Shown: positions 24,003 to 25,704 of the stretch, piece by piece | Position numbering within the stretch: position 1 is the first letter of the stretch | How the letters are laid out: each line of letters opens with the position of its first letter | UHGV virus genome: UHGV-0243142 | From: a virus | Length of the DNA: 26,786 nt | Reading direction: 5' to 3' (one strand) | Translations under genes and position numbers: made by a program | Notes under the pieces: generated by a model | Told to the model about the DNA's origin: nothing | Databases searched by the model: none | What the model saw: the letters and a program-made list of their open reading frames with translations, nothing else

Positions 24003-25704
24003 TTACTACTCAATTATCACTAACCGGGGTAAAGAACTGGAGGCGGAGGCGCTGGCCAGTGGTCGCCTGATTGTACTGACTCACTTTGTGGTGGGTGACA
24101 GTAATGGCAAGCAGGTTAAACCTGATCCGTCGCAAATCCGGTTGATCAATGAAACGTACCGGGGAGATATCGCTGAGCTGGTGGTGTCACCGGAGCAGTC
24201 CACGCAGTTAATGGCAAAAATCGTTCTGCCGACCGGGGTTGGTGGATTCACCGTTCGCGAAGTCGGTTTAATGACTGACGCCGGAGAGCTTTACGCGGTG
24301 GCAAACTGCCCATCGATCGATAAGCCGGTTGGTGGTGTCAGCGTTAATATGCAGTTTCGCCTGGCGGTATCAGATACCTCAAATATCACGCTGAATGTTG
24401 CTACAGGTGACGGCTTATTCCTGCGCATTGACCAGAATCTGAAAGAGATAAAAGCGCGGGGCGCGGAAGCACAAAAAACGTCGCGTGAATCCATTGGTGT
24501 CCTCGATGGCACGACACAACAAAGAGGGCTGGTTCAACTTAACAGCGCGGTGAACAGCACCAGTGAAACGCAGGCAGCCACCCCTGCCGCAGTTAAGATC
24601 GCAATGGATAATGCGAACGCGCGGCTGGCTAAAGACCGGAACGGCGGTGACATTCCGAATGTCGCATTATTTCTACAAAACCTTGGTCTGGGAAAGACCG
24701 ACTCTCCAGAGTTTGGTGGACTGAAGGCACCCTCTATAACTTTACGGGATGGAAAGATAAGCCTCACCTCTTCTACAGATGGTACGACATTAGTCTTTAC
24801 CGTGAGTGGGGAGCCTGTTGCAGAAATAAAAGCGGGTAGCTTCTTTCATAAAAAAATTATCTCTGCAGGTGAGGTTCTTCAGTCACCAAAATACATCTTC
24901 AGGGATGGGGATATTATTTTCTACTCAGGTCCAAATAATCTTGTCATGCAGGTTGACGGTAAAGATGTTGCGACGCTAACGCCAGAAAATTTTTATCATG
25001 TCAAACAGGTCGCTGCCGCTGAATCCTTGAGTGCACCAAAAGTGATTCTCAGGCCTGGCGATGTGAACCTCGTTTCCGGGAAAAATAACCTGGTTATTCA
25101 GGTTGGCGGTAACGATGTTGCAACGCTAACGCCAGAAAATTTTTATCACGTTAAACAGGTAGCCGCGGCTGAATCACTTAAGGCACCAAAGGTCATATTG
25201 CGTGATGGCGATGTAAATCTAATTAGCGGCGCTAACAACCTGGTTATTCAGGTTGGTGGCAACGATATTGCCTCGCTGACCCCGGGAAATAATTTCTTTA
25301 AAGGAAAACTCACAGCTGAAAACAGTCTCCAGGTTGGTAGTACCTGCATCCTGGCTACTGACGGTAATTTAACAGGAAGTAAATGGGGCGGCTGGCTGGA
25401 CGCATTCATGAAAGACGGCATGTCTACTGACGGGAATGGGTTGTGGTGGGATGCTTTTTCATCTCAGCTCCAGTTCCGTGTCGGTGACTGGAACATACCT
25501 GATGTAGCAGGAGGAGCAGGCACTAGTGTGACTTTCCCCAAAGCGTTTAAAAATGGGTGCCTTATGGTTATTCCCATCCCTGGCGATGGCGGCTCCTCAG
25601 AGCAGATAGGAAGTCAGAGTTACTCAGCTTCTGGCGCGGTACTTCAAAAAGGTGCGAGTGATAAAAACCCTCGCTCCGGCAAATATCTGGCAATCGGATA
25701 CTGA
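23995..25704 (+). CDS. Tail fibre protein (P2 gpH / lambda Stf-like N-terminus)
   Basis: ATG overlaps the gpI stop. N-terminus MADYYSIITNRGKELEAEALASGRLIVLTHFVVGDSNG...VREVGLMTDAGELYAVAN is the conserved tail-fibre N-terminal (baseplate-attachment) domain. Tandem repeats lie in the shaft. Confidence 0.8.
   Translation: MADYYSIITNRGKELEAEALASGRLIVLTHFVVGDSNGKQVKPDPSQIRLINETYRGDIAELVVSPEQSTQLMAKIVLPTGVGGFTVREVGLMTDAGELYAVANCPSIDKPVGGVSVNMQFRLAVSDTSNITLNVATGDGLFLRIDQNLKEIKARGAEAQKTSRESIGVLDGTTQQRGLVQLNSAVNSTSETQAATPAAVKIAMDNANARLAKDRNGGDIPNVALFLQNLGLGKTDSPEFGGLKAPSITLRDGKISLTSSTDGTTLVFTVSGEPVAEIKAGSFFHKKIISAGEVLQSPKYIFRDGDIIFYSGPNNLVMQVDGKDVATLTPENFYHVKQVAAAESLSAPKVILRPGDVNLVSGKNNLVIQVGGNDVATLTPENFYHVKQVAAAESLKAPKVILRDGDVNLISGANNLVIQVGGNDIASLTPGNNFFKGKLTAENSLQVGSTCILATDGNLTGSKWGGWLDAFMKDGMSTDGNGLWWDAFSSQLQFRVGDWNIPDVAGGAGTSVTFPKAFKNGCLMVIPIPGDGGSSEQIGSQSYSASGAVLQKGASDKNPRSGKYLAIGY
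24886..25300 (+). repeat. Tandem direct repeat, 150 bp unit, about 2.75 copies, inside the tail fibre gene
   Basis: The anchor CAGGTTG(A/G)CGGTAA recurs at 24949, 25099 and 25249, an exact 150 bp period. The encoded 50 aa units read NLV(M/I)QV(D/G)G(K/N)D(V/I)A(T/S)LTPENFYHVKQVAAAESL.APKVILR.GDVNL.SG. Confidence 0.7.

Follow-up and report, generated by a model that had tools for sequence, protein, structure and literature searches.

A 50-residue tandem unit of variable copy number in the distal tail fibres of Citrobacter prophages

Repeated shafts are familiar among viral fibres: the pseudo-repeats of the adenovirus fibre shaft and the shaft repeats of T4 gp34/gp37 are trimeric, built from short beta units, and their repeat number sets shaft length. 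In the literature on copy number of fibre repeats we found one relevant precedent, the Enterococcus phage EfV12-phi1, in which variable-number in-frame tail-fibre duplications appeared during coevolution with a host that had turned resistant via exopolysaccharide mutations (Wandro et al. 2019; PMC6365445). The fibre of Sxt1, a relative of T3, is extended via pyramid-domain insertions (PMC11680406). Here we describe a tandem array of 50-amino-acid (50-aa) units in the tail-fibre gene of the virus genome UHGV-0243142, a stretch of 26,786 nucleotides (nt) that we call the window. The array has three units in the window and zero to five among its relatives, and prophages that are otherwise closely similar carry the two reciprocal products of a single unequal exchange between neighbouring units.

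A sequence-only reading of the window had placed exact 150-bp tandem repeats at 24886-25300, as about 2.75 in-frame copies of a 50-aa unit. The in-frame array of period 150 is there: Tandem Repeats Finder reports 24933-25271 (period 150, 2.3 copies, 80% matches, score 410) as the sole tandem repeat in the window, and in protein register the units occupy 24880-25329, 24886-25300 being the extent of visible nucleotide similarity. The 50-aa unit also stands, with the count becoming three units preceded by a degenerate one, u0:

24724..24879, plus strand: unit u0, degenerate, 52 aa (52 codons); it scores 25 bits with a hidden Markov model (HMM) of the unit built without u0 and aligns to u2 at 38% identity
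24880..25029, plus strand: unit u1 (QSPKYIFRDGD...AAAESL), 150 bp, sequence QSPKYIFRDGDIIFYSGPNNLVMQVDGKDVATLTPENFYHVKQVAAAESL
25030..25179, plus strand: unit u2 (SAPKVILRPGD...AAAESL), 150 bp, sequence SAPKVILRPGDVNLVSGKNNLVIQVGGNDVATLTPENFYHVKQVAAAESL
25180..25329, plus strand: unit u3 (KAPKVILRDGD...TAENSL), 150 bp, the final unit of the array, sequence KAPKVILRDGDVNLISGANNLVIQVGGNDIASLTPGNNFFKGKLTAENSL

What does not hold is exactness. Nucleotide identity is 74% between u1 and u2, 61% between u2 and u3 and 56% between u1 and u3 (amino-acid identity 74%, 66% and 50%), and no exact stretch at offset 150 exceeds 26 nt (the longest begins at 24973). The window's array is by these values not a hypermutable, contingency-type repeat; near-identical copies occur only in the derived four- and five-unit alleles described below. 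The periodicity is nevertheless much stronger than expected by chance, the best 150-nt segment at offset 150 having 118 matches versus 51.6 +/- 3.9 at other in-frame offsets. Unit u2 most resembles u3 in its first half (71%) and u1 in its second (85%), and the segment after u3 (QVGSTCILATDGNLTG) looks like the beginning of another unit, as judged by eye only. Between units the synonymous divergence (dS) ranges from 0.66 to saturated, with ratios of nonsynonymous to synonymous divergence (dN/dS) of about 0.08-0.34, values that point to purifying selection on the units; between u1 and u2, dN is 0.40 in the first halves and 0.05 in the second halves. Because synonymous sites are near saturation, the window's copies must be old: u1-u3 are diverged copies kept similar by selection at the protein level, not a recent duplication.

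Copy number varies widely among relatives. A protein search with the distal 334 aa of the fibre against 5.8 billion proteins gave 116 proteins, nearly all from Citrobacter freundii. Complete fibres were scored with the unit HMM and counted as clusters at 90% identity. We found u0 followed by 0, 1, 2, 3, 4 or 5 well-conserved units in 3, 1, 71, 15, 1 and 1 clusters, respectively, with a mode of two. The sequence-only reading had allowed that copy number might prove invariant across all relatives, which this range contradicts. Unit u0 is found in every complete fibre scored, even those without any other unit; in one of these (P0106, locus L003) it is joined straight to the neck that follows the array. 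Proteins of the same N-terminal class differ in length in exact 50-aa steps (287/387/437, 338/388, 392/442, 396/446, 422/472, 433/483 and 569/619 aa). The three-unit allele is real, since it is present in chromosome-scale assemblies, and one three-unit fibre (P0138, 483 aa) occurs on 107 contigs. The four-unit allele has two independent sources, a complete chromosome of 4.89 Mb and a metagenome scaffold; the five-unit allele (locus L001) lies on a 3.06-Mb contig. The one-unit protein (P0097) looks as if the start of u1 had been fused to the last unit. Of the 11 proteins with three or more units that were inspected, 10 carry the signature SAPKVILRPGDVN in their middle unit, and the other (P0011) has S for P (SAPKVILRSGDVN); this shared signature suggests a single old origin of the middle unit, then spread by cassette exchange. 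Many database proteins are partial and end in the repeat region (P0093, P0096, P0101, P0103, P0105, P0108, P0109, P0111, P0112, P0115 and P0116). Short-read assemblies evidently break at the repeat, probably because the cassette recurs in the same genome in addition to its tandem repetition.

Two comparisons between closely similar prophages locate the exchange to a short core that has exactly two occurrences in the window:

25087..25106, plus strand: 20-nt core AACCTGGTTATTCAGGTTGG in u2; the crossovers of relatives fall within it
25237..25256, plus strand: second copy of the 20-nt core AACCTGGTTATTCAGGTTGG, in u3, the exchange partner

The first comparison is with P0117 (619 aa; from a search of 1.84 billion representative proteins), a four-unit form of the window's own fibre. 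It is encoded at locus L005 in the complete C. freundii chromosome CP056451.1, in a prophage of the same type that matches the window at 98.2% identity across 9.3 kb and differs from it by a single 150-bp insertion. Base for base, the additional unit is a chimera of u3 nt 1-77 and u2 nt 58-150 (the last 93 nt), the two parts overlapping in the 20-nt core. The second comparison is between two loci with the same Mu-like tail, L010 with two units and L011 with three, whose upstream identity is 97.3%. Here the second unit of L010 is a fusion of L011 u2 nt 1-77 (0 mismatches) with u3 nt 78-150 (2 mismatches), again joined at the core. The fused unit is the reciprocal deletion product of the u2/u3 exchange seen in L005. 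Taken together, L005 and L010 show that both products of one unequal u2-u3 exchange occur naturally.

The repeat is copy-number-polymorphic by three measures, namely three versus four units with 98.2% flanking identity, three versus two with 97.3%, and the ladder of zero to five units. The proposal that the repeats are substrates for expansion or contraction by recombination or slippage has thereby gained nucleotide-level footprints of in-register exchange, in L005 and L010. The four-unit allele contains an exact repeat of 170 nt, and the five-unit allele of L001 one of 320 nt at offset 150; the latter run fits a further round of exchange. As to whether the 20-nt core is conserved beyond the demands of its amino acids, such a run of identical codons has a roughly estimated chance probability of about 0.09, which is not significant.

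The unit as a recognisable sequence family is confined to this Citrobacter group. A unit profile searched against the 1.84 billion representative proteins placed only 8 clusters below 1e-30, each one belonging to this fibre family, so it is not the universal fibre domain that the sequence-only reading had named as an alternative; the other 18 matches were weak, partial and to long repetitive proteins. No Pfam or NCBIfam family spans the units (in Pfam, aa 244-445 are uncovered). Nucleotide search with the distal fibre found no match in 5,426 complete E. coli genomes, and tblastn with the array found none at 1e-3 in 50,697 phage records; among isolated phages, the N-terminal module only was found, in Citrobacter phage Chris1. 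Several candidate relationships were considered. The units are not PF03406 (Phage_fiber_2) repeats, the sole PF03406 match being at aa 173-213, upstream of the array. A beta-roll of the PF21300 (LbR_Ice_bind) type scored 16.4 bits versus a cut-off of 30, and its match on P0001 was faint. NCBIfam hits, to UreE and others, lay far below threshold and were judged spurious; those to UreE on fibre aa 302-390 and on P0001 aa 197-342 scored 30.8 and 55.7 bits versus cut-offs of at least 199, and these scores accumulate over the repeats, giving repeat-inflated and meaningless E-values down to 5e-15. A resemblance by eye to the T7 pyramid domain, gp17 residues ~371-447 (KAHYILSKDGNRN versus KAPKVILRDGDVN, spaced at about 50 residues), is unsupported by hhalign, in which the unit profile versus T7 gp17 352-471 gave a probability of 0.3% and E = 0.22, not significant.

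Beyond u3 the fibre continues into two further parts:

25330..25425, plus strand: neck, QVGSTCILATDGNLTGSKWGGWLDAFMKDGMS, similar to T7 gp17 residues 432-464
25426..25701, plus strand: C-terminal knob, putative receptor-binding tip; PF21882 (Gp53-like_C), 32.6 bits versus a cut-off of 24.9

The neck matches 4a0t and 7boz in phmmer/hmmsearch (E = 4e-5 to 7e-5), and by the published layout gp17 432-464 roughly spans the helical linker and the last part of the pyramid domain (PMC11680406). For the tip, the PF21882 score places it in the gp53/pyocin-knob family, and Foldseek gave the R1/R2 pyocin fibres 6cl5, 6ct8, 6cxb and 6cl6 and AP22 gp53 (4mtm) at E = 1.6e-4 to 8.5e-4. Foldseek against the Protein Data Bank (PDB) and BFVD gave no unit-specific structural relative, the aligned part of the query not being stated in the outputs; in the PDB the significant matches (E <= 0.001) were these R-pyocin fibres and AP22 gp53, and in BFVD the better-superposing matches were short tail-fibre or gp53-like C-terminal proteins. 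Structure prediction of the unit, which had been proposed as a check, was done with AlphaFold2 on a monomer of aa 236-569 with a 50-sequence alignment. Its overall confidence was low (mean predicted local distance difference test, pLDDT, 62; predicted template-modelling score, pTM, 0.28): each of the units, counted as four, has three beta-strands (pLDDT 75-79), with linkers between them at pLDDT <50, and a helix at aa 466-475 in the neck precedes a beta-rich knob (pLDDT about 65-77). AlphaFold2 is reported to struggle with the comparable region of T7/T3 fibres (PMC11680406), and fibres are intertwined trimers; for both reasons the monomer model can be taken to support no more than beta-structured modular units.

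The array sits within a part of the fibre that is exchanged as a block, of which the outer parts are:

23995..24687, plus strand: N-terminal module, proximal to the baseplate, which Citrobacter phage Chris1 has too
24682..24723, plus strand: conserved junction LGLGKTDSPEFGGL, left edge of the exchangeable distal cassette, drawn from the translation and from the similarity edges of L001-L003 and Chris1
25706..26308, plus strand: Tfa, the 200-aa chaperone of tail-fibre assembly, which forms the right-hand part of the cassette (PF02413, E = 1.8e-23; phrog_188)

Three loci whose fibres have unrelated N-termini, L001, L002 and L003, become similar to the window at 24680, 24671 and 24639, respectively, and remain so to 26310; L001 and L002 have a Phage_Wedge1-type baseplate and L003 is Mu-like. 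Chris1 (ON041214) has the same N-terminus as the window, then a different distal part, then inverted fibre genes; its nucleotide identity is 92.9% across nt 1-693 of the fibre gene with none further along, and its overall match to the window (4410-24687, 94% identity) ends at fibre codon 231. Because the similarity to Chris1 stops where the similarity to fibres with unrelated N-termini starts, the array lies in an exchangeable cassette. The fibre is thus a two-part mosaic whose distal cassette of about 1.65 kb comprises the junction, u0, the variable units, the neck, the knob and Tfa. The cassette, running from LGLGKTDSPEFGGL through tfa, is shared with fibres on tails of P2-like, Mu-like and Phage_Wedge1 type, the aligned pieces having 87.6-97.9% nucleotide identity, and more than 20 different N-termini bear it in the protein set.

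Some C. freundii strains apparently hold several cassettes. P0008, P0141 and P0152 (longest contig 5,301,945) apparently belong to one genome with multiple cassette fibres of three units each, P0015 and P0138 (longest contig 5,268,984) to another with two such fibres of three units each, and strain AI2602V1 has one five-unit and one two-unit fibre. The presence of the cassette in several prophage or tailocin fibres of the same genome fits either a common receptor or exchange among elements that reside together. We considered and rejected the idea that P0073 (288 aa), an open reading frame (ORF) that starts at the junction, is the alternative cassette of an invertible segment: in L007/L008 this ORF is the next one after Mu gp48, separated from it by about 310 nt (6689-7001), and there is neither an invertase nor an inverted copy. 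ORFs that start at the junction or within a unit have 288, 252, 213 and 202 aa (L007/L008; also P0076, P0095 and P0099), and these are probably disrupted or truncated fibre genes.

We propose, with a probability of roughly 0.8, that the array is a modular distal segment of a trimeric myovirus fibre whose copy number is altered by in-register misaligned exchange or slippage. The segment is laid out as a junction peptide, the constant degenerate u0, a variable number of 50-aa units, the neck, and a knob with the presumed receptor-binding tip. Since the period is 150 nt, in-register misalignment preserves the reading frame, and unequal homologous exchange or replication slippage between adjacent units could then alter copy number, with the 20-nt core identical in u2 and u3 as the recurrent exchange point. 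The three-unit allele of the window would be fairly stable because its units are old and diverged; a single exchange in the core would convert it to a four-unit or a two-unit allele. The four-unit allele, because of its 170-nt exact repeat, would be much more prone to change, and could give rise to five units. Each added unit would lengthen the shaft and so alter the reach of the knob through O-antigen or capsule; this consequence of unit copies we infer by analogy with other repeat-built fibres, with the EfV12-phi1 duplications as an experimental precedent in its favour.

Several points weigh against this proposal. First, sequence alone leaves recombination (by RecA or a phage recombinase) and replication slippage undistinguished. 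Second, lengthening per unit is a step beyond the structural model, which is of a monomer with a mean pLDDT of 62 and a pTM of 0.28, and the units could take part in binding and not merely act as spacers. Third, the one-unit allele comes from a single 2.8-kb contig. Fourth, the window and the European Nucleotide Archive (ENA) metagenome contig k141_18549, a MEGAHIT k141 product, have the same sequence over at least 10.8 kb; because such an assembly could collapse an exact extra unit, the window's three units are a lower bound. As a practical warning, exact units may be under-counted in short-read or k141 assemblies generally.

A stronger claim, which we regard as unlikely, can be built on the same proposal. 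The array would be a selected "length dial" in a species-restricted host-range cassette and the core a recombination hotspot; C. freundii prophages and tailocins would shift quickly among zero to five units, matching the thickness of O-antigen or capsule, while the cassette passed among more than 20 tail adaptors. If true, the repeat would be more than incidental: a natural system by which fibre length can be programmed.

A different function for the units, which seems to us unlikely, is that they are carbohydrate-binding, lectin-like beads whose copy number tunes avidity or specificity for O-antigen or capsule and not length. The divergence between units would suit such surface variation in that the first halves differ most (the dN of 0.40 for u1 versus u2), yet u1 and u2 hardly vary at the protein level in their second halves (dN = 0.05), which looks structural. 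Likewise, the whole cassette including the units is restricted to one host species complex, but no lectin or carbohydrate-binding family was matched in Pfam or NCBIfam, and fibres without variable units retain the neck, the knob and the adjacent chaperone gene, so that the units look dispensable.

It is very improbable that the differences in copy number lack biological meaning and reflect misassembly or neutral noise around a fixed structural repeat: although many partial proteins terminate in the repeat region (where short-read assemblies break), the 170- and 320-nt exact repeats are hard to assemble, and the one-, four- and five-unit alleles are one cluster each, the alleles of zero to three units differ by diverged, non-collapsible units on many independent contigs (107 for P0138 alone), the four-unit allele is in a complete chromosome as well as a separate scaffold and the five-unit allele is on a megabase contig, and clean reciprocal chimeras at one core are expected from recombination, not misassembly. 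The variation itself, once accepted as real, may be neutral.

The array proposed here to vary by misaligned exchange is carried by a tail-fibre gene of known type:

23995..25704, plus strand: tail-fibre gene, 569 aa, starting MADYY; the identical 569-aa protein P0002 is called from the same start

A mechanical ORF extends from 23914 to 25704, with an in-frame ATG at 23914, 81 nt upstream of 23995, that would give 596 aa; the extension (23914-23994) overlaps the 3' end of the gpI-like gene (23439-24002), and homologues begin at 23995. Pfam matches on the fibre are PF12571 (aa 1-135, E = 5.7e-34), PF03406 (E = 1.1e-18 for the match given above) and PF21882 (aa 504-569). The gene order is gpW, baseplate J, gpI, fibre and PF02413 chaperone, then a DinI-like gene on the minus strand. 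With PF12571 and PF03406, and with its position after the baseplate J and gpI genes as for P2 gpH and Mu-type fibres, the gene belongs to the P2/Mu-type myovirus tail-fibre family. The P2-like fibre N-terminus and a downstream PF02413 chaperone are also found in P2-type tails and R-pyocins.

Tfa has its own internal tandem duplication, of an N-terminal domain of about 60 aa: aa 5-65 (25718-25900) align with aa 67-127 (25904-26086), HYYSASWRAFF...GKIIVPDDTGHPV versus YYYSASRQGFF...GKIIKPDDNGYPV, with a local alignment score of 141 versus 26 +/- 5 for shuffled sequences. The 200-aa Tfa goes with most cassettes, the form in L003 having 163 aa. Directly downstream of tfa lies one further gene:

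26378-26620, minus strand: DinI-family gene

Its arrangement on the strand opposite tfa is repeated in L005, L006 and L007. At the other end of the window, positions 1-6300 are similar to the regulatory and lysis regions of lambdoid phages (Q antiterminator, methylases, and a holin and endolysin as in phiNP, Eeyore and Salmonella phage F1055). Its structural genes match the Chris1 type, with a P2-like tail, so that the phage combines a lambdoid early/late region with a myovirus tail in one mosaic genome. An Rfam scan of the window gave no match.

Among described systems, EfV12-phi1 is like the present array in having an in-frame variable-copy repeat in a myovirus fibre gene, just upstream of the distal binding region, and in that the repeat was read as an adaptation to change in host surface polysaccharide (PMC6365445). 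It differs in its 1.8-kb unit, which arose de novo in a laboratory experiment as identical copies; here the unit is 150 bp, and ancient diverged copies are found in natural prophages. T7 gp17 (PDB 4A0T) is like the present fibre in its succession of intertwined beta region, short helix and tip (PMC11680406), and the neck after the array (LQVGSTCILATDGNLTGSKWGGWLDAF) matches its residues 432-464 at E = 4e-5. It differs in that the unit is without significant similarity to the pyramid, a tandem unit array is not reported at the pyramid/linker region of gp17, and the tip here is gp53/pyocin-like and not T7-like. For R-type pyocin fibres (6CL5, 6CL6, 6CXB) and AP22 gp53 (4MTM; PF21882), the knob here has the same fold and family, with the likeness limited to the last ~120 residues and no demonstrable match to the units. 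Adenovirus and T4 shafts have unrelated sequences and other unit sizes and serve as analogy only.

Tail-fibre shaft repeats and the mosaic exchange of fibre modules are already well known; the unit is a new, unannotated repeat family. What our analysis adds to the described systems is a clean natural series of zero to five copies of this 50-aa unit, and both reciprocal exchange products at a defined 20-nt core in prophages otherwise 97-98% identical. The series forms a near-isogenic fibre set for testing shaft length versus adsorption through O-antigen or capsule, and LGLGKTDSPEFGGL provides a defined junction for engineering the host range of Citrobacter phages and tailocins.

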